From assembly GCF_044324875.1 (NCBI RefSeq), contig NZ_CP172185.1: DNA of 64,000 nt; one strand, 5' to 3'. Below are positions 1 through 63,877 of the stretch, one piece after another; position 1 is the stretch's first letter; every line of letters begins with the position of its first letter. A program made the translations under genes and the position numbers. This DNA is from Escherichia coli (GTDB lineage Bacteria; Pseudomonadota; Gammaproteobacteria; Enterobacterales; Enterobacteriaceae). A model generated the notes under the pieces. That model made no database searches. It worked only from the letters and a program-made list of their open reading frames with translations, and was not told where the DNA came from.

Positions 1-489
1 CAAGCGCAGCCAGCAGGCGACAAGGCTGAGTTCATCGAAAAAGTTCGCCGTGCGCTGTATCTGGGCAAAATCGTTTCTTACGCTCAGGGCTTCTCTCAGC
101 TACGCGCCGCGTCTGAAGAGTACAACTGGGATCTGAACTACGGCGAAATCGCGAAGATTTTCCGTGCTGGCTGCATCATCCGTGCGCAGTTCCTGCAGAA
201 AATCACCGATGCTTATGCCGAAGATCCGCAGATCGCTAACCTGCTGCTGGCTCCGTACTTCAAGCAAATTGCTGATGACTACCAGCAGGCGCTGCGTGAT
301 GTCGTTGCTTATGCAGTACAAAACGGTATCCCGGTTCCGACCTTCGCCGCTGCGGTTGCCTATTACGATAGCTACCGTGCCGCTGTTCTGCCTGCGAACC
401 TGATCCAGGCACAGCGTGACTATTTCGGTGCACATACTTATAAGCGCATTGATAAAGAAGGTGTGTTCCATACTGAATGGCTGGATTAA
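1..489 (+). CDS. gnd: 6-phosphogluconate dehydrogenase, 3' portion (5' end lies outside the window)
   Basis: Frame 1 translation ends ...[23 protein letters not shown] followed by TAA at 487-489, matching the recalled Gnd C-terminus. Confidence 0.9.
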
Positions 490-514
490 TCTGATTTAAC
501 CAACAATAAAATTG

Positions 515-548
515 AGGCCCGGCGTATATTGCACCGGGCTTTTTTTTG
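515..548 (+). terminator. rho-independent terminator downstream of gnd
   Basis: GC-rich hairpin gcccggcgtatattgcaccgggc followed by a run of 8 T. Confidence 0.7.
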
Positions 549-728
549 CCAATTATCTTATAGACTAAATTTCACTGCTTAATATTAACTTAATAAATAT
601 CAGCTATTCTTATAAAGAAATTCTGAATTGTTTTTCGTTGCGTTGACCATCTTACAACGTAGCGTTAAAACTTTTAACTCTTATCAGGATGCTAAAAACA
701 TCATGATTCACAGTTAAGTTAATTCTGA

Positions 729-1904
<1,176 letters not shown>

Positions 1905-2049
1905 CATCTTGTTATCAGGGCTATTTACGCCCTGATTGTCTTTTGTTACTTCCTCAATAATTCATTATTTTTATCACTTATCCTATAGCATTCACGAGGA
2001 TTATCGCTAAACTATGCGGACTTGGAAATTTCCGTCAGTTAGGGTAATG

Positions 2050-3027
2050 ATGAGAGTAGAAAATAATAATGTTTCTGGGCAAAACCATGACCCGGAACAG
2101 ATTGATTTGATTGATTTACTAATGCAGTTGTGGCGTGGCAAGATGACAATCATCATCTCTGTCATTGTTGCTATTGCCCTGGCTATAGGGTATCTGGCCG
2201 TTGCCAAAGAAAAGTGGACTTCCACAGCTATCGTTACTCAACCTGATGTGGGGCAAATCGCTGGCTATAACAATGCCATGAATGTTATCTATGGTCAGGC
2301 TGCACCGAAAGTGTCAGATTTGCAGGAGACGTTGATTGGTCGCTTCAGTTCTGCCTTCTCTGCATTAGCAGAAACGCTGGATAATCAGGAAGAACCAGAA
2401 AAACTTACCATCGAACCTTCTGTTAAGAACCAGCAATTACCATTGACTGTTTCTTATGTTGGGCAAACTGCAGAGGGCGCACAAATGAAGTTGGCCCAAT
2501 ACATTCAGCAAGTTGACGATAAAGTGAATCAAGAGCTAGAAAAGGATCTCAAAGACAACATTGCTCTGGGACGGAAAAACTTGCAGGACTCTTTAAGAAC
2601 GCAGGAAGTGGTCGCGCAGGAGCAGAAAGATCTGCGTATCCGTCAGATTCAGGAAGCATTGCAGTATGCGAATCAGGCGCAGGTGACAAAACCACAGGTT
2701 CAGCAGACTGAAGATGTGACGCAAGATACGTTGTTCCTTCTTGGGAGCGAAGCACTGGAGTCGATGATTAAGCATGAGGCGACCCGTCCGTTGGTGTTCT
2801 CACCAAACTACTATCAGACTCGTCAAAACCTGCTGGATATCGAAAGCTTAAAGGTTGATGATCTTGATATTCATGCTTACCGTTATGTGATGAAACCGAC
2901 GTTACCTATTCGTCGCGATAGCCCGAAAAAGGCAATTACCTTGATTCTGGCAGTGCTACTGGGTGGCATGGTTGGCGCGGGGATTGTGCTGGGGCGTAAC
3001 GCTCTACGCAATTACAACGCGAAATAA
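2050..3027 (+). CDS. wzzB: O-antigen chain-length determinant protein Wzz
   Basis: ORF from 2014; start placed at the internal Met giving MRVENNNVSGQNHDPEQIDLIDLL; two hydrophobic segments flank a long periplasmic region. Confidence 0.9.
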   Translation: MRVENNNVSGQNHDPEQIDLIDLLMQLWRGKMTIIISVIVAIALAIGYLAVAKEKWTSTAIVTQPDVGQIAGYNNAMNVIYGQAAPKVSDLQETLIGRFSSAFSALAETLDNQEEPEKLTIEPSVKNQQLPLTVSYVGQTAEGAQMKLAQYIQQVDDKVNQELEKDLKDNIALGRKNLQDSLRTQEVVAQEQKDLRIRQIQEALQYANQAQVTKPQVQQTEDVTQDTLFLLGSEALESMIKHEATRPLVFSPNYYQTRQNLLDIESLKVDDLDIHAYRYVMKPTLPIRRDSPKKAITLILAVLLGGMVGAGIVLGRNALRNYNAK

Positions 3028-3049
3028 TCTTTGCAGTTTTAAAGAAAAT

Positions 3050-3082
3050 GGGCAGGGTGGTGACACCTTGCCCGTTTTTTTT
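3050..3082 (+). terminator. rho-independent terminator after wzzB
   Basis: Hairpin gggcagggtg-gtgaca-ccttgccc followed by T8. Confidence 0.7.
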
Positions 3083-3115
3083 GCCGGATGCGATGCTGGC
3101 GCATCTTATCCAGCC
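3083..3115. repeat. REP (repetitive extragenic palindromic) element
   Basis: gccggatgcgatgctggcgcatcttatccagcc matches the REP pattern GCC(G/T)GATGCG...GCG(T/C)CTTATC(C/A)GGC. Confidence 0.7.
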
Positions 3116-3134
3116 AAAATGTGCAGAGCGAATA

Positions 3135-4421
<1,287 letters not shown>

Positions 4422-4489
4422 CGATAAGCTTGCGCATCGGGCAATGGCTACGGATGCGACTACAACATCGCATCCGGTCAGTCCGCAAC

Positions 4490-5094
4490 TCACTGATGCC
4501 GTTTGCGCAGGTTCTCAATCACCGTCGTTAAATCCAGCCCCTGATCCTGCAACAGCACCAGCAGGTGATACATCAAGTCAGATGCCTCGTTGGTCAGCTC
4601 AAAGCGGTCATGTACCGTTGCTGCCAGCGCAGTTTCCACCCCTTCTTCGCCCACTTTCTGCGCGATGCGTTTGGTGCCGCTGGCATACAGTTTGGCTGTG
4701 TAAGAGGTTTCCGGGTCGGCAGATTTACGTTCGGCGAGCAGTTGTTCCAGTTGATACAGGAACAGCCACTGGTGAGCGGTGTTGCCGAAGCAACTGCTGG
4801 TGCCTTTGTGGCAGGTCGGGCCGATGGGATTCGCCAGCACTAATAAAGTGTCGTTGTCGCAGTCCGACGCAATACTCACTACGTTGAGGAAATTACCCGA
4901 CGTTTCGCCTTTGGTCCACAGTCGCTGTTTAGTGCGCGAGAAGAAGGTAACTTTGCCACTTTCGATGGTTTTGTCCAGAGCTTCCGGGTTCATGTAGCCC
5001 AGCATTAACACTTCACCGGATACCGCGTGTTGCACAATCACCGGCATCAGTCCGTCGGTTTTTTCCCAGTCCAGTTCGCGACGTAGTTGTTCTG

Positions 5095-5101
<7 letters not shown>
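4490..5101 (-). CDS. hisI: bifunctional phosphoribosyl-AMP cyclohydrolase / phosphoribosyl-ATP pyrophosphatase
   Basis: 203-aa [27 protein letters not shown]...; last gene of the his operon. Confidence 0.93.
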
Positions 5102-7179
<2,078 letters not shown>

Positions 7180-7180
<1 letters not shown>

Positions 7181-8246
7181 TACAGCACTCCTTTCGACGA
7201 GGGCAGGGTGTCGCCTTCCACGCGGATGGCCTGGCGCAGGGTGCGGCCAAACGCTTTGAACAGGCTCTCTACACGGTGGTGATCGTTTTTACCTTTGGTT
7301 TTCAGGTGCAGGGTCACGCCCATGGTGTATGAGAGCGAACGGAAGAAGTGCTCGATCATTTCAGTGCTGAGATCGCCCACGCGCTGGTAGGTAAACTCGG
7401 CTTTATATTCCAGGTGCGGGCGACCAGAGATATCCAGCGCGCAGCGGGCAAGGCATTCGTCCATCGGCAGCACAAAACCGAAGCGGCAAATACCGCGTTT
7501 GTCGCCAAGAGCAATTTTTAATGCTTCGCCCAGCGCCAGGCCGGTATCTTCGACGGTGTGATGATCGTCGATATAGAGGTCGCCTTTAACGTTGATTTCC
7601 ATACGGAAACCACCGTGGGTAGCGATCTGATCCAGCATGTGATCAAAGAAGCCAACGCCGGTGTTAATCTTGCTGCCACCTTCGCGATCCAGCCACACCT
7701 GGACGTCAATTTGCGTCTCTTTGGTGTTACGCACTACATGGGCGTAACGGTCTCGTTTAGTGAGTTGCTCGCCAATCATTGGCCAGTTCAGAGTTTCGCG
7801 GTCGTAGCGTAAACCATTAATGCCCATGTTTTCCGCCAGTTGAATGTCGGTCGCGCGATCGCCAATTACATAACTGTTAGCGCGATCCATCGCTTGCTCA
7901 GCCAGATAACGCTCCACCAGTTTTACTTTCGGCTTACGGCAGTCACACTCATCGGCGGGCAGGTGTGGGCAAATCAGCACTTCATCAAACTGCACGCCTT
8001 GCGAGGTGAAGATCTGCATCATCAGGTTGTGCGGGCCATCGAAATCCGCCTGCGGGAAACTTTGTGTTCCCAGACCATCCTGATTAGTGATCATCACCAG
8101 CTTGTAGCCCGCTTTTTGCAGCTTCAGCAGCTCCGGGATCACGCCAGGTTCAAAGGCGAGTTTGTCAAAACGGTCCACCTGAAAATCACTTGGCGGTTCG
8201 CTAATCAGGGTTCCATCGCGATCGATAAAAAGATACTTCTGACTCA

Positions 8247-8247
<1 letters not shown>
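7180..8247 (-). CDS. hisB: bifunctional histidinol-phosphatase / imidazoleglycerol-phosphate dehydratase
   Basis: [23 protein letters not shown]...; start placed at the second Met ([13 protein letters not shown]). Confidence 0.92.
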
Positions 8248-10618
<2,371 letters not shown>

Positions 10619-10623
10619 GGCGA

Positions 10624-11523
10624 TCACTCCATCATCTTCTCAATCGGCAGGACCAGAATTGAACTGGCACCCAGCGCTTTCAGTTTTTCCATCGTTTCCC
10701 AGAACAGGGTTTCGCTGCTGACCATGTGCATCGCTACGCGCTGTTGGTCACCTGCCAGCGGTAGAATGGTTGGGCGTTCGGCACCTGGCAGCAGGGCGAT
10801 GACTTCATCCAGACGTTCGGTCGGTGCGTGCATCATGATGTATTTTGATTCGCGCGCCTGGATCACGCCCTGAATACGCGTCAGCAGTTTGTCGATCAGT
10901 TGCTGTTTGGATTCTTCCATTTCGCCATCGCGTTGGATCAGGCAGGCTTTCGAGCGGTAGATAACTTCGACTTCGCGCAGGCCGTTAGCTTCAAGCGTGG
11001 CACCGGTGGAAACCAGATCGCAAATCGCATCCGCCAGTCCGGCACGCGGGGCGACTTCAACAGAACCGTTCAGTAAGCAGGATTTAAAAGAGATGCCTTT
11101 CTGGTCGAGATAACGCTTGAGCAGGTGAGGATAAGAGGTGGCGATACGTTTACCGTTTAAGGAGAGCGGGCCGTCCCAGGCTTCATCAACCGGCGTTGCC
11201 AGCGAAAGGCGGCAGCCGCCGAAATCCAGACGACGCAGGGTAAAGTAGCGCGGATCTTCACCCTGGGCGCGGCGGTTAAGCAGCTCTTCTTCCAGCACGT
11301 TTTCGCCGATAATCCCAAGGTCAACCACGCCGTCCATTACCAGACCGGGAATGTCGTCGTCACGCACGCGCAGAATATCAATCGGCATGTTTTCTGCCAT
11401 CGCGATCAGGCGCTGGGTGTGAAGATTAATTTTAATGCCGCAGCGCGCCAGTAATTCGCGTGAGTCATCACTTAAACGGCCGGATTTCTGCATAGCTATG
11501 CGTAAACGAGAGTTGTCTGTCAT
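10624..11523 (-). CDS. hisG: ATP phosphoribosyltransferase
   Basis: Track ORF is 312 aa; start placed at the internal Met giving [21 protein letters not shown] (299 aa). Confidence 0.92.
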
Positions 11524-11571
11524 TTTCTTATTCCTCTTTAAACCTGTCTGAACCGTTATCAACCGCGCAAT

Positions 11572-11606
11572 AAAAAAGCCCCCGGAAGGTGATCTTCCGG
11601 GGGCTT
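11572..11606 (-). terminator. his attenuator terminator
   Basis: Minus strand reads gaaagcccccggaagatcaccttccgggggctttttt; a perfect GC hairpin plus T-run between hisL and hisG. Confidence 0.85.
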
Positions 11607-11668
11607 TCTCATGCGTTCATGCACCACTGGAAGATCTGAATGTCTTCCAGCACACATCGCCTGAAAGA

Positions 11669-11719
11669 CTAGTCAGGATGATGGTGATGATGGTGGTGTT
11701 TAAATTGAACGCGTGTCAT
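11669..11719 (-). CDS. hisL: his operon leader peptide
   Basis: Minus-strand ORF ATG ACA CGC GTT CAA TTT AAA CAC CAC CAT CAT CAC CAT CAT CCT GAC TAG = MTRVQFKHHHHHHHPD, with seven consecutive His codons. Confidence 0.95.
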   Translation of the reverse strand: MTRVQFKHHHHHHHPD

Positions 11720-11968
11720 AAAAGTCTCTGTGAATGTTTATTCAACTGATGTCTTTTAACCTAAACCACTTTCACGTTAGAAAGCAAGGGCTTTTTTATA
11801 TATTTTATGGCGATGGATTTGTTTAATGAATGAGCGGGGAAAGGAGGGGGCTAAGAGGACTGACCTCTAAGCTGACGGCACCAAAAATAGCGAAGCCTGG
11901 ATTTTCGTCTCACTGACAATATCTTGATCTACAAACTAATTAATAAATAGTTAATTAACGCCCATCAT

Positions 11969-11986
11969 TGTACAATGAGCTGTACA
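11969..11986 (+). promoter_or_regulatory. YefM-YoeB operator (paired TGTACA palindromes)
   Basis: tgtacaatgagctgtaca lies immediately upstream of the yefM start; TGTACA repeats are the recalled YefM/YoeB autoregulatory operator. Confidence 0.6.
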
Positions 11987-12001
11987 AAAGAGGAGATTGA
12001 C

Positions 12002-12253
12002 ATGCGTACAATTAGCTACAGCGAAGCGCGTCAGAATTTGTCGGCAACAATGATGAAAGCCGTTGAAGATCATGCCCCGATCCTTATTACTCGTCAGAAT
12101 GGAGAGGCTTGTGTTCTGATGTCACTCGAAGAATACAACTCGCTGGAAGAGACGGCTTATCTGCTGCGCTCCCCCGCTAACGCCCGGAGATTGATGGACT
12201 CAATCGATAGCCTGAAATCAGGCAAAGGAACAGAAAAGGACATTATTGAGTGA
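12002..12253 (+). CDS. yefM: type II antitoxin YefM
   Basis: [64 protein letters not shown]...; stop overlaps the yoeB start. Confidence 0.92.
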
Positions 12254-12504
12254 AACTAATCTGGTCTGAGGAATCATGGGATGATTATCTGTACTGGCAG
12301 GAAACAGATAAGCGAATTGTTAAAAAGATCAATGAACTTATCAAAGATACCCGCAGAACGCCATTTGAAGGTAAGGGGAAGCCAGAACCCCTGAAACATA
12401 ATTTGTCAGGCTTCTGGTCCCGACGCATTACAGAGGAGCACCGTCTGGTATACGCGGTTACCGACGATTCACTGCTCATTGCAGCATGTCGTTATCATTA
12501 TTGA
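12250..12504 (+). CDS. yoeB: type II toxin YoeB (ribosome-dependent mRNA interferase)
   Basis: 84-aa [71 protein letters not shown]... Confidence 0.92.
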
Positions 12505-12586
12505 ACAGATTCATTCATAGAATGAATTGTCAGTTTTGATACGCTAGCGTAGCCTTATAGATCTAAGGTGTATCAGGAGATAACGG

Positions 12587-13411
12587 ATGAAAAAGGTCGC
12601 AATTGTCGGGTTAGGGTGGTTAGGCATGCCGCTGGCGATGTCACTTTCAGCGCGAGGCTGGCAAGTTACCGGGAGTAAAACCACACAAGATGGTGTCGAA
12701 GCGGCCCGAATGAGTGGGATTGATAGCTATCTGCTTCGCATGGAGCCTGAGTTAGTTTGCGATTCTGACGATCTGGATGCCCTGATGGATGCCGATGCGC
12801 TGGTCATTACGCTTCCGGCACGTCGTAGCGGCCCCGGCGATGAGTTCTATTTACAAGCGGTACAAGAGTTAGTAGATAGCGCGCTGGCCCATCGTATTCC
12901 CCGCATTATTTTTACCAGCTCAACATCTGTCTATGGCGACGCGCAAGGCACGGTGAAAGAAACCACCCCGCGTAATCCGGTAACCAACAGTGGACGAGTA
13001 TTAGAAGAACTCGAAGACTGGCTGCACAATTTACCCGGAACTTCGGTCGATATTCTACGTCTTGCGGGTCTGGTCGGACCGGGACGTCATCCCGGACGTT
13101 TCTTTGCCGGAAAAACCGCCCCTGATGGTGAACATGGTGTTAATTTAGTCCATTTAGAAGATGTTATTGGCGCTATCACTCTGTTGTTACAGGCACCTAA
13201 AGGCGGACACATCTATAATATATGTGCGCCAGCTCACCCTGCGCGTAATGTTTTCTATCCGCAGATGGCCCGTTTACTGGGGCTGGAACCTCCGCAGTTC
13301 AGAAATAGTCTGGACAGCGGCAAAGGTAAGATTATTGATGGCAGTCGGATTTGTAATGAACTGGGATTTGAATACCAGTATCCCGATCCGCTGGTAATGC
13401 CGCTGGAGTAA
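12587..13411 (+). CDS. yeeZ: NAD(P)-binding epimerase/dehydratase-family protein
   Basis: 274-aa ORF with N-terminal Rossmann motif VAIVGLGWLG; synteny with yeeY. Confidence 0.8.
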   Translation: MKKVAIVGLGWLGMPLAMSLSARGWQVTGSKTTQDGVEAARMSGIDSYLLRMEPELVCDSDDLDALMDADALVITLPARRSGPGDEFYLQAVQELVDSALAHRIPRIIFTSSTSVYGDAQGTVKETTPRNPVTNSGRVLEELEDWLHNLPGTSVDILRLAGLVGPGRHPGRFFAGKTAPDGEHGVNLVHLEDVIGAITLLLQAPKGGHIYNICAPAHPARNVFYPQMARLLGLEPPQFRNSLDSGKGKIIDGSRICNELGFEYQYPDPLVMPLE

Positions 13412-14386: not shown

Positions 14387-14652
14387 AGAAAAATTATTAT
14401 GACAAGCCTCTCATTCTCTTGTCATTTCCCCCCCATTTAGGCACAATGCGCCGCTGTCAAAAAATGACTAAAAACCGACGTTTCATCAGCGTCGGTTATT
14501 TTTTGCTTCAAACCAATCATTCATACCAAGAGGCCGGGCTTCGTACCGGATAGATATTTACTAAAAATCGACAGTTGTTGTCGCTGAGGAATCCAAAAAA
14601 ATGGGGCAATTTTTTGCTTACGCGACGGTTATCACCGTAAAGGAGAATGACC

Positions 14653-16011: not shown

Positions 16012-16029
16012 TCATCTTTTCTAATAATC

Positions 16030-16068
16030 AACCGGAGTCGAATGAATATTTGGCTCCGGTTTTTTTAT
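16030..16068 (+). terminator. rho-independent terminator after plaP
   Basis: Hairpin accggagtcgaatgaatatttggctccggt followed by T7. Confidence 0.7.
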
Positions 16069-16189
16069 TCTTTTTTATCGAAATCCTCATTAATAACCAT
16101 TTGTTCTAATTTAGAGAATTTGGTTATTGGTCTGCATTCCACCAGTCATGAATAATTTCCCCATTAACATTCATCTGGTTAATTAATTT

Positions 16190-17248
16190 ATGTTTTCAAT
16201 GATATTAAGCGGGCTAATTTGTGGTGCTCTGCTGGGATTTGTCATGCAGCGTGGGCGTTTTTGCCTGACAGGTGGTTTTCGCGATATGTATATCGCGAAA
16301 AATAATCGCATGTTTTACGCCTTGCTGATTGCAATTTCGGTACAAAGCGTGGGGGTTTTTGCGTTAATTCAGGCGGGCCTACTGACTTACGAAGCCGGGG
16401 CGTTCCCGTGGCTTGGTACTGTTATAGGTGGGTATCTTTTCGGGCTGGGAATTGTTCTGGCGGGTGGATGTGCCACCGGGACCTGGTATCGCGCGGGTGA
16501 GGGATTGATCGGCAGTTGGATCGCGCTTTTCACTTATATGGTGATGAGTGCGGTGATGCGTTCTCCACACGCCAGTGGTTTAAATCAAACCTTGCAGCAC
16601 TACAGTACTGAACATAACTCTATTGCTGAGACTTTTAATTTGTCTGTGTGGCCGTTGGTTACCGTTTTGCTGGTGATAACGCTCTGGGTGGTGATGAAAG
16701 AGTTGAAGAAGCCAAAACTCAAAGTCGCGACCTTACCGCCGCGCCGAACCGGGATCGCTCATATTCTGTTTGAAAAACGCTGGCATCCCTTTGTCACTGC
16801 TGTACTCATCGGTTTGATTGCGCTTTTAGCCTGGCCCCTGAGTGAAGCAACCGGACGCATGTTTGGGTTAGGAATCACTTCCCCAACGGCCAATATTCTG
16901 CAATTTCTGGTCGCGGGTGACGTGAAATACATTAACTGGGGCGTTTTCCTGGTGTTAGGGATCTTCGTGGGGTCATTTATTGCAGCCAAAGCGAGCCGTG
17001 AGTTCCGCGTTCGCGCTGCTGATGCACAAACAACATTACGTAGCGGGTTAGGTGGTGTACTGATGGGCTTCGGTGCCAGCATTGCAGGTGGTTGCTCTAT
17101 CGGTAATGGACTGGTCATGACTGCAATGATGACCTGGCAGGGCTGGATTGGCCTTGTATTTATGATTCTCGGAGTCTGGACTGCGTCCTGGCTTGTGTAT
17201 GTTCGACCGCAGCGTAAGGCGCGACTGGCAACTGCTGCGGCAAATTAA
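16190..17248 (+). CDS. yeeE: YeeE/YedE-family inner-membrane transporter (thiosulfate uptake)
   Basis: 352-aa ORF MFSMILSGLICGALLGFVMQRGRFCLTGG... with conserved Cys-containing motifs in a polytopic membrane protein. Confidence 0.85.
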   Translation: MFSMILSGLICGALLGFVMQRGRFCLTGGFRDMYIAKNNRMFYALLIAISVQSVGVFALIQAGLLTYEAGAFPWLGTVIGGYLFGLGIVLAGGCATGTWYRAGEGLIGSWIALFTYMVMSAVMRSPHASGLNQTLQHYSTEHNSIAETFNLSVWPLVTVLLVITLWVVMKELKKPKLKVATLPPRRTGIAHILFEKRWHPFVTAVLIGLIALLAWPLSEATGRMFGLGITSPTANILQFLVAGDVKYINWGVFLVLGIFVGSFIAAKASREFRVRAADAQTTLRSGLGGVLMGFGASIAGGCSIGNGLVMTAMMTWQGWIGLVFMILGVWTASWLVYVRPQRKARLATAAAN

Positions 17249-17261
17249 GTAAGGTGTAAAG

Positions 17262-17489
17262 ATGGCGATTAAAAAGCTGGATGTGGTGACGCAGGTCTGT
17301 CCGTTTCCACTCATAGAAGCAAAAGCAGCACTGGCAGAAATGGCCAGCGGCGATGAGTTGGTAATTGAGTTTGATTGCACCCAGGCAACTGAAGCAATCC
17401 CACAGTGGGCGGCAGAAGAAGGGCATGCCATCACCGATTATCAGCAGATTGGCGATGCAGCGTGGAGCATCACCGTTCAAAAAGCCTGA
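17262..17489 (+). CDS. yeeD: TusA-like sulfur-carrier protein
   Basis: 75-aa ORF containing the TusA CPxP motif (VCPFPL). Confidence 0.85.
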   Translation: MAIKKLDVVTQVCPFPLIEAKAALAEMASGDELVIEFDCTQATEAIPQWAAEEGHAITDYQQIGDAAWSITVQKA

Positions 17490-17531
17490 CTCAAAATTGT
17501 CCTCCGCCGTACCAGCGGCGGAGGCTTCACA

Positions 17532-18959
17532 TTAGACAATCTCTTCCGCGTACTGCCAAAGCGCTTTTAACAGCGCCACTTTTTCTTTATCGTCGGCATA
17601 CTGCTGCGCCAGCATCTGAATCTCTTCTGCATAACCCTGCAAAAACTCTGGCGCGAAGACCTGGCGGCGGTGCTCCAGCCAGCGTTGCTGCTCGGCATAA
17701 TCCAGCGTCCCCGGGAAGTTGCGCGCCCGATAATTGAACAACAGCTTTTCAATTCGTTTATCAACAAAAGTGATATCCAGTGCCGGTAAATTACGCGGCT
17801 CGGTTTCAAGCACAATTTTCATTGCTGCGCGATCGGCGTCACTGAAAAAGCCATTATAAAGCTGTGCATCCACGTTATCTGAAGGCGTAAACGGTTCGGC
17901 TTCCGCGAATATCGCCACCACTTTTTCACGCACTTGCGGATTTTCACGCAGAATTTTCAGGTTATCGAGGCAATGCTGACGATTAATTCCCAGTCGGTCG
18001 GCATCTTCCGGGCGTAGCGTATTCGCCTGGGCCAGCACCGGACATTTATTGATATGCACCAGTTTAACCGGAACGGCGGCGTTATCGCCAAGATCGGCTT
18101 TTGCGGTATATAGACGCTCGCGCAATGTGTCGCTATCCAGTTCCAGTAATGGCGAAATGTCTCCTGCCAAATCCACCATAATTACGGCATTGCGATTTTC
18201 AGGATGCCACGCCAGCGGTGCCACCCAGCTGGTATTGCCGCGCCATGCCCCAAACATTCCGGAAACGTGAACCAGGGGTTTCATCTGCGGAACATCAATC
18301 AACGCCATCAGTTTGTGTTTATTACGATGGGTAAAGAGATAATCAAACAGGCGTGGCTGACGCGTTTTTACCAGTTTCGCCATCGCAATAGTGGCGTACA
18401 CATCAGCCATCGCATCGTGGGCGTTGCTATGTTCAATACCATTCGCTTTGGTTAAATGCTCAAGGCGAAAGCTCGGTAGACCGTCATCATTTTCAGGCCA
18501 GTTTATTCCTTCCGGGCGCAGGGCATAACAGGCACGCATAACATCCAGTAAATCCCAGCGCGAGTTATCATGCTGCCAGCTCCAGGCGTAAGGATCGTAG
18601 AAATTACGATAAAAAACGTTGCGTGTGACTTCGTCGTCGAAACGCACATTGTTGTAGCCCAGAATACAGGTCTTCGGTACGGTAAAAAGCGAGTGAATAC
18701 GGGCGGCAAATGCGGCTTCGTTTTCTCCTTTCGCCCGAGCTTCCTGCGGGGTAATACCGGTAATTAATACTGCTCCAGGCAGGGGTAAATAGTCATCCGC
18801 GGGCTTGCAGTAAAAGACTTCGGGTTCGCCGATGACATTGAATTCGTCATCGGTGCGAATGGCTGCGAACTGTGCAGGGCGATCTAACGCGGGGTGCGTG
18901 CCAAAGGTTTCGTAATCGTGAAACAAAAAGGTAGATTGTTGCTTACCGTCATTCATCAT
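17532..18959 (-). CDS. sbcB: exodeoxyribonuclease I
   Basis: ORF from 19007; start placed at MMNDGKQQSTFLFHDYETFG (DnaQ-like exonuclease motif). Confidence 0.9.
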   Translation of the reverse strand: MMNDGKQQSTFLFHDYETFGTHPALDRPAQFAAIRTDDEFNVIGEPEVFYCKPADDYLPLPGAVLITGITPQEARAKGENEAAFAARIHSLFTVPKTCILGYNNVRFDDEVTRNVFYRNFYDPYAWSWQHDNSRWDLLDVMRACYALRPEGINWPENDDGLPSFRLEHLTKANGIEHSNAHDAMADVYATIAMAKLVKTRQPRLFDYLFTHRNKHKLMALIDVPQMKPLVHVSGMFGAWRGNTSWVAPLAWHPENRNAVIMVDLAGDISPLLELDSDTLRERLYTAKADLGDNAAVPVKLVHINKCPVLAQANTLRPEDADRLGINRQHCLDNLKILRENPQVREKVVAIFAEAEPFTPSDNVDAQLYNGFFSDADRAAMKIVLETEPRNLPALDITFVDKRIEKLLFNYRARNFPGTLDYAEQQRWLEHRRQVFAPEFLQGYAEEIQMLAQQYADDKEKVALLKALWQYAEEIV

Positions 18960-38636: not shown

Positions 38637-38838
38637 CGAAATAATCTGGCAGCTATAAACGTTTATTTTTTTACTGTTTGTGATCTGCTTTCCGAACTTA
38701 TTAAAAAGTCTCCCGCTTCACGGAGGCTTTTGTTATTGTCCTTTGTGCTTCTCGTCAGTAAATCATCAGGGATGATGTGAAGATTAAATGTAAAACAATT
38801 GTTTTGCTATAACAATAAATTAACTGGGAGGTTTTATC

Positions 38839-39753: not shown

Positions 39754-39869
39754 AGTAAATGCCAAAAAAAAGGAAGGTTTAAATAAACGCTGGAATGAAT
39801 AATTAACGTTATTTACGTGTTATGGGAAAAGTGAAATCAGCTCATAACATACGCTGACAGGTGTGGCAC

Positions 39870-40080
39870 ATTTGTGCCAGGGAAGAGGGTGAAAATCCCT
39901 CGCAGCCCCCGCTGCTGTAATGCTGACAAACCCGAAAATGCCACTGATCGCGAGATTGGGAAGGTCGGGTGAGGATGACGCTAAGCCAGAAGACCAGTCT
40001 GTCAGTCAATACCAACAACTTCGGTGGGAAGTGGGTTGCCCGGAAGCGTCCGGTAGAGTACTGGCGCGTCTTTATACCCC
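39870..40080 (+). promoter_or_regulatory. cobalamin (B12) riboswitch; boundaries approximate
   Basis: Contains the conserved riboswitch blocks ggtgaaaatccc, cgcagcccccgctgctgtaa, gccactg, gggaaggtcgg and the B12-box-like aagccagaagaccag. Confidence 0.65.
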
Positions 40081-44234: not shown

Positions 44235-44310
44235 TGGCTCCTCTGACTGGACTCGAACCAGTGACATACGGATTAACAGTCCGCCGTTCTACCGACTGAA
44301 CTACAGAGGA
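44235..44310 (-). tRNA. asnV: tRNA-Asn (GUU)
   Basis: 76-nt reverse complement of tcctctgtagttcagtcggtagaacggcggactGTTaatccgtatgtcactggttcgagtccagtcagaggagcca. Confidence 0.95.
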
Positions 44311-46642: not shown

Positions 46643-46718
46643 TGGCTCCTCTGACTGGACTCGAACCAGTGACATACGGATTAACAGTCCGCCGTTCTAC
46701 CGACTGAACTACAGAGGA
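46643..46718 (-). tRNA. asnU: tRNA-Asn (GUU)
   Basis: Identical 76-nt tRNA-Asn sequence, reverse strand. Confidence 0.95.
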
Positions 46719-48466: not shown

Positions 48467-48542
48467 TCCTCTGTAGTTCAGTCGGTAGAACGGCGGACTG
48501 TTAATCCGTATGTCACTGGTTCGAGTCCAGTCAGAGGAGCCA
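48467..48542 (+). tRNA. asnW: tRNA-Asn (GUU)
   Basis: tcctctgtagttcagtcggtagaacggcggactgttaatccgtatgtcactggttcgagtccagtcagaggagcca on the plus strand. Confidence 0.95.
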
Positions 48543-63801: not shown

Positions 63802-63877
63802 TGGCTCCTCTGACTGGACTCGAACCAGTGACATACGGATTAACAGTCCGCCGTTCTACCGACTGAACTACAGAGGA
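63802..63877 (-). tRNA. asnT: tRNA-Asn (GUU)
   Basis: Identical 76-nt tRNA-Asn sequence, reverse strand, upstream of yeeJ. Confidence 0.95.

Follow-up and report, generated by a model that had tools for sequence, protein, structure and literature searches.

Beside the histidine leader, in a 64,000-nucleotide stretch of Escherichia coli DNA (hereafter the window), two short overlapping genes follow a closely spaced pair of TGTACA motifs. This arrangement raises two questions: whether the locus is an intact yefM-yoeB toxin-antitoxin operon whose paired motif is the operator, and, if so, what the module does for its host.

Analyses of the two predicted proteins indicated that both belong to well-described toxin-antitoxin families. 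The initial annotation, made from the letters of the DNA alone, had read the locus as a type II YefM-YoeB unit and had named two Pfam families to be looked for. Both were matched strongly, PF02604 by the yefM product (E=6e-28, 96.8 bits; cut-off 29.8) and PF06769 by the yoeB product (E=3e-43, 146.3 bits; cut-off 27), and toxin-antitoxin family matches were thus not absent. In addition, the proteins exceeded the cut-offs of the corresponding NCBIfam equivalog models, with 186.6 bits against 121 for NF008499 (YefM), aligned 1–83 to 1–83 of 83, and 132.8 bits against 51.8 for TIGR02116 (Txe/YoeB). YefM and YoeB had 100% amino acid identity to the K-12 proteins b2017 and b4539, their genes having three and two synonymous differences, respectively. 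The reading as a type II YefM-YoeB unit was therefore borne out by Pfam, NCBIfam and the identity to the K-12 proteins alike. Structural entries were matched over the full length of both proteins, with YefM matching PDB 2a6q_A over residues 1–83 (E=1.8e-49) and YoeB matching 2a6q_E over residues 1–84; the YoeB sequence is also found in the ribosome complex 4V8X and in 6OTR, 6OXA and 6OXI.

Direct reading of the translations showed that YoeB has a full-length C-terminus and retains E46, R65, H83 and Y84, the residues that Kamada and Hanaoka reportedly described as catalytic in 2005. YefM has the N-terminal arginines R10 and R31, which we take to be the positions of the operator-recognition arginines. 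N-terminal arginine-type residues of YefM are needed for operator recognition (reviewed in PMC3920265). Strain CFSAN061771 was 99.9% identical to this DNA over 951 nt and 100% identical over a 503-nt coding stretch, and RefSeq places yefM and yoeB at the same positions in that strain, between hisL and yeeZ. We are close to certain that this is an intact copy of yefM-yoeB, a chromosomal type II toxin-antitoxin operon of Escherichia coli, located where it normally lies, between hisL and yeeZ. Every detail of the feature has been described before, and there is nothing new in its identity or mechanism.

The coordinates of the genes and their control elements are given in Table 1. The module had been annotated as spanning 11969–12504, and all of these coordinates agreed with the sequence and the open reading frame readout. 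The two genes share a strand, with yefM directly upstream of yoeB and 4 nt in common, and so have the plan of one operon. The stop/start overlap had been described as ATGA-type; the 4-nt overlap class was right, but the actual letters are GTGA and the yoeB start codon is GTG, and no other point of the description needed correction. We infer that translation of yoeB is coupled to that of yefM through this overlap, which would help to keep the antitoxin in excess. The AAGGA within the 3' end of yefM is a possible Shine-Dalgarno sequence for yoeB. The spacing between the yefM ribosome binding site and its ATG is also 6 bp in K-12 (PMC1802561).

Table 1. Features of the yefM-yoeB locus and its immediate flanks, in positions of the 64-kb window.
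Feature	Position	Strand	Remarks
hisL, leader peptide gene	11669–11719	-	Exact match to K-12 hisL; neighbour outside the module
Whole yefM-yoeB cassette (promoter, operator, both genes)	11858–12506	+	From alignment with O157:H7 8368 and CUVET20-PYO4
-35 hexamer TAGTTA of pyy (yefM-yoeB promoter)	11948–11953	+	17 bp upstream of the -10 box; matches the published sequence
L (long) operator palindrome TCATTGTACAATGA	11965–11978	+	Exact 14-mer, core 11969–11974; same as the footprinted K-12 L
-10 hexamer TACAAT	11971–11976	+	Inside the L palindrome
S (short) operator repeat, core TGTACA	11981–11986	+	12 bp centre-to-centre from L
Inferred transcription start, G	11982	+	Transferred from K-12 by homology; inside the S core
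yefM Shine-Dalgarno GAGGAG	11990–11995	+	6 nt ahead of the ATG
yefM (antitoxin and autorepressor, 83 aa)	12002–12253	+	ATG at 12002; TGA stop 12251–12253
Candidate yoeB Shine-Dalgarno AAGGA	12236–12240	+	9 nt before the GTG, within the yefM 3' end; inferred from sequence
GTGA overlap of yoeB GTG start and yefM TGA stop	12250–12253	+	4 nt
yoeB (ribosome-dependent mRNA interferase toxin, 84 aa)	12250–12504	+	GTG start at 12250; stop ends at 12504
Perfect AT-rich hairpin TTCATTC-ATA-GAATGAA with a U-rich tract after it	12510–12526	+	Just beyond the right border of the cassette

Alignments with other E. coli genomes showed that the whole cassette is a presence/absence polymorphism. The yefM-yoeB pair was found in 4211–4217 of 5426 complete E. 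coli genomes (~78%), always on the chromosome, and ~22% were without it. In O157:H7 strain 8368 and in strain CUVET20-PYO4 the interval occupied by the cassette is replaced by an unrelated 215-bp segment, which was complete in 1197 genomes; based on the sum of 4217 and 1197, two mutually exclusive alleles cover nearly all of the 5426 genomes. O55:H7 strain CB9615, which is related to O157:H7, carries the cassette. The borders of the cassette are sharp, with the right border only 2 nt past the yoeB stop. Repeats within the cassette were limited to short, low-identity pairs, and no transposon ends or flanking direct or inverted repeats were found. The 215-bp segment is presumably REP/BIME-like, as judged by eye and from the REP consensus. 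Part of it matched other loci in other genomes at ~82% identity, and a REP-like 26-mer taken from it had no copy in the 64-kb window. The polymorphism fits the common view of chromosomal toxin-antitoxin modules as accessory cassettes and adds nothing new on mechanism.

What the module does physiologically is a matter of debate, on which the polymorphism bears. The locus could have exactly the identity described above and still be a selfish accessory cassette that brings the host no benefit, one kept mainly because its loss is harmful, rather than a host stress-response regulator. We consider this a real possibility, somewhat below an even chance. It is favoured by the discrete nature of the polymorphism, with its sharp borders at 11858 and 12506 and with ~1197 genomes having the 215-bp segment instead, and by the viability of a host strain deleted for five toxin-antitoxin cassettes including yefM-yoeB (PMC1802561). 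On the other hand, the proteins are highly conserved where present, with identical accessions found in strains of no more than 97–98% DNA identity, and the operator cores were invariant in ten alleles. This conservation of the proteins and the cores argues for purifying selection, but addiction by itself might have the same result. On the polymorphism and the viable five-cassette deletion strain together, we lean toward dispensability. The selfish reading concerns the role of the module, however, and leaves the yefM-yoeB operon as identified here, and its working, untouched.

The regulatory region of the operon matched that published for K-12. The two TGTACA cores (11969–11974 and 11981–11986) are separated by a 6-nt gap (ATGAGC) and occupy positions -33 to -16 from the yefM ATG, exactly where the initial annotation had placed a tgtaca-N6-tgtaca motif (11969–11986). 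The published criterion for this operator is two TGTACA cores with 12-bp centre spacing no more than 80 bp from the yefM start codon (PMC1802561); here two cores 12 bp apart lie 16–33 nt upstream of the ATG. In K-12 the paired operator was mapped by DNase I footprinting (PMC1802561), and EMSA, footprints and reporter fusions showed that YefM binds it, that YefM-YoeB does so with greater avidity, and that autorepression results (PMC1802561; PMC7730913). The K-12 promoter pyy was described as having a -10 box TAcAAT, a -35 box TaGttA, a 17-bp spacer and a G at +1 (PMC7730913, Boss 2020). When the K-12 start was mapped in vivo, the yefM ATG was found to begin at +21 and another in-frame ATG to lie upstream, at -7 (PMC1802561, Kedzierska 2007), and we assigned +1 to 11982 because both distances fit. 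A simple sigma-70 consensus scan did not call a plus-strand promoter upstream of yefM. This is not evidence against the promoter, because its -35 hexamer, TAGTTA, is too weak for the scan rule. Together, these data indicated that the paired TGTACA is the published L/S operator of pyy, at which binding and autorepression are predicted on the basis of near-identity to K-12.

We also weighed whether the paired motif could be a by-product of the -10 region or a chance repeat with no operator function. The L core overlaps the -10 hexamer, and promoter function could therefore explain part of its conservation. However, exact TGTACA-N6-TGTACA occurred once in the window on both strands, compared with 0.01 occurrences expected from 100 shuffles (one of which had a match), and it was still a single site when one mismatch was allowed (0.14 expected); the single TGTACA occurred nine times. 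The S core, moreover, is no promoter hexamer, yet it was invariant in ten alleles. In K-12 the non-operator reading has already been refuted, as published footprints, S-repeat mutations and spacing changes showed that binding and repression act via the repeats (PMC1802561; PMC3920265; PMC7730913). We regard it as next to impossible here, and the paired motif is treated below as the L/S operator. There is likewise virtually no chance that YefM is a 92-aa protein begun at the upstream ATG, with the operator inside its coding sequence: the frame is open from 11975 to 12253, but the start site transferred from K-12 (11982) lies downstream of the ATG at 11975, GAGGAG is spaced for an ATG at 12002, where RefSeq also places the start, NF008499 aligns from residue 1 of the 83-aa form, and published work found +21 to be the translation start even with the upstream codon present (PMC1802561), so that start site, Shine-Dalgarno position and published N-terminus together rule it out.

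Two bases of the promoter region differ from K-12, C for T at 11962, which is in the -35/-10 spacer 3 bp upstream of the L palindrome, and G for A at 11979, which is between L and S; both are outside the TGTACA cores and the promoter hexamers. The exact 71-nt promoter allele was present in 106 other complete E. coli genomes. When ten diverse E. coli alleles were aligned, both cores, the -10 box and the Shine-Dalgarno sequence were invariant, and positions 11960–11963 and 11979 varied. The variants at 11962 and 11979 are common natural alleles. Within yefM codons 2–3 there is also a cGTACA (12005–12010), a five-of-six match to the core, which begins 24 bp downstream of the S core, or two 12-bp steps. 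It was conserved in all ten alleles examined, although it is coding sequence, and it may be due to chance. That this cGTACA is a third operator element, making weak contact in higher-order YefM-YoeB assemblies, or that the alleles at 11960–11963 and 11979 tune basal expression or repression between lineages, is a speculation to which we give very little credence.

Directly visible in this DNA are an intact two-gene operon, an intact operator over the promoter and intact YoeB catalytic residues. Based on published work on the identical K-12 proteins and the near-identical K-12 operator, transcription would be started at about 11982 by a weak sigma-70 promoter (-35 TAGTTA, -10 TACAAT). Dimeric YefM, the primary repressor, would bind L over the -10 box first and then S over the start site. 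YoeB would act as co-repressor, with the YefM-YoeB complex binding both repeats cooperatively in a manner dependent on the 12-bp spacing. A complex seated on both repeats would sterically block RNA polymerase, since the -10 box lies under L and the start site under S. In the YefM2-YoeB complex the antitoxin would wrap and inactivate the toxin, concealing the YoeB catalytic site. Depletion of the labile YefM by Lon protease would then free YoeB to bind the ribosome, where it would cleave mRNA in the A site, near the start codon, and so arrest translation; repression would be lost on YefM depletion, allowing YefM to be replenished. Ribosome-dependent mRNA cleavage and growth arrest by YoeB have been published for the identical protein (PMC3920265), and YefM of this locus is expected to neutralise YoeB and to be degraded by protease, as published for the identical K-12 protein.

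The placement of the module beside the his leader was correct, as hisL is divergent and its start codon is separated by 282 bp from that of yefM, and Rfam gave a His_leader match at 11570–11693 on the minus strand (131.6 bits). In O157:H7 strain 8368 the first codon of the histidine run of hisL is changed from CAC to CAG (His to Gln), giving six consecutive His codons instead of seven. Beyond the right border, the RNA fold of 12496–12545 had an energy of -12 kcal/mol (z = -2.65 versus shuffles), and the hairpin at 12510–12526 was conserved whether or not a genome carried the cassette. A terminator scan called none after yoeB, this hairpin included. The hairpin may be a weak terminator or a control site for yeeZ.

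Several other features of the window were observed. The interval ~22800–43200 holds a complete pdu (propanediol-utilisation) microcompartment operon together with pduF, pocR, cobUST and a cobalamin riboswitch (39842–40016), and this region is colinear with CFSAN061771 at 97.8%. K-12 presumably has the CP4-44 prophage remnant in the interval where the window has the pdu operon. Between plaP and sbcB, ~1.45 kb (16014–17533) is absent from CFSAN061771, otherwise the closest strain; this stretch is not an insertion sequence, and it holds a yeeE-like open reading frame for a 352-aa membrane protein (16190–17248) followed by yeeD, as in K-12. At positions 1–4400, where gnd, ugd and wzzB adjoin the his operon, identity to the closest strain was 88–96% with a shifted register, compared with ~98% in the rest of the window. 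Such divergence is characteristic of this flank of the O-antigen locus, which is prone to recombination. Rfam gave equal scores to four tRNA genes (44238–44310, 46646–46718, 48467–48539 and 63805–63877), the first three of which are tRNA-Asn by annotation in a related strain. Rfam matches to the small RNAs STnc240 (14432–14506, upstream of yoeI/plaP) and STnc230 (38695–38778) were also present.

The yefM-yoeB locus is a textbook operon; publications from 2005 to 2020 described its structure, its promoter and operator, and the way it acts. It serves here as a positive control, since both genes, the overlap between them and the operator were located to the exact base from raw sequence. One mildly useful addition, and no other, is the definition of the exact cassette borders (11858–12506) with the ~78%/22% split among genomes.

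Of the known systems, the closest is yefM-yoeB of E. coli K-12, which has the same location between hisL and yeeZ, identical proteins and the same GTGA overlap. The likeness to the K-12 pyy promoter-operator extends to the L palindrome, the S core, the 12-bp spacing, the -10 and -35 hexamers and the Shine-Dalgarno sequence. The differences from K-12 over 11640–12600 amounted to 12 single-base changes, five of them synonymous changes in the genes and two in the promoter region.

Axe-Txe of the Enterococcus faecium plasmid pRUM is a homologous pairing of a Phd/YefM-type antitoxin with a YoeB-type toxin, and the two TGTACA cores of its operator are likewise spaced by 12 bp (PMC7730913). In the Axe-Txe promoter-operator pat, however, L is in the -35/-10 spacer and S only partly covers the -10 box, and repression is therefore weaker and at a different step than at pyy. 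Axe-Txe also differs in having an internal promoter of its own for txe. The present locus is of the pyy type, its L repeat covering the -10 box and its S repeat the start site.

More distantly, YoeB resembles the toxin of RelBE in its RelE-type ribosome-dependent RNase fold and gave weak matches to the RelE/ParE/YafQ families, and YefM is a Phd-family antitoxin (TIGR01552 match), as in Phd-Doc. The plan of a two-gene autoregulated operon is common to both of these systems and to yefM-yoeB. YefM-YoeB differs from them as a hybrid pairing, in which a Phd-like antitoxin is joined with a RelE-like toxin (PMC3920265). RelB is a ribbon-helix-helix protein, whereas YefM has a different DNA-binding fold and recognises a different operator sequence.
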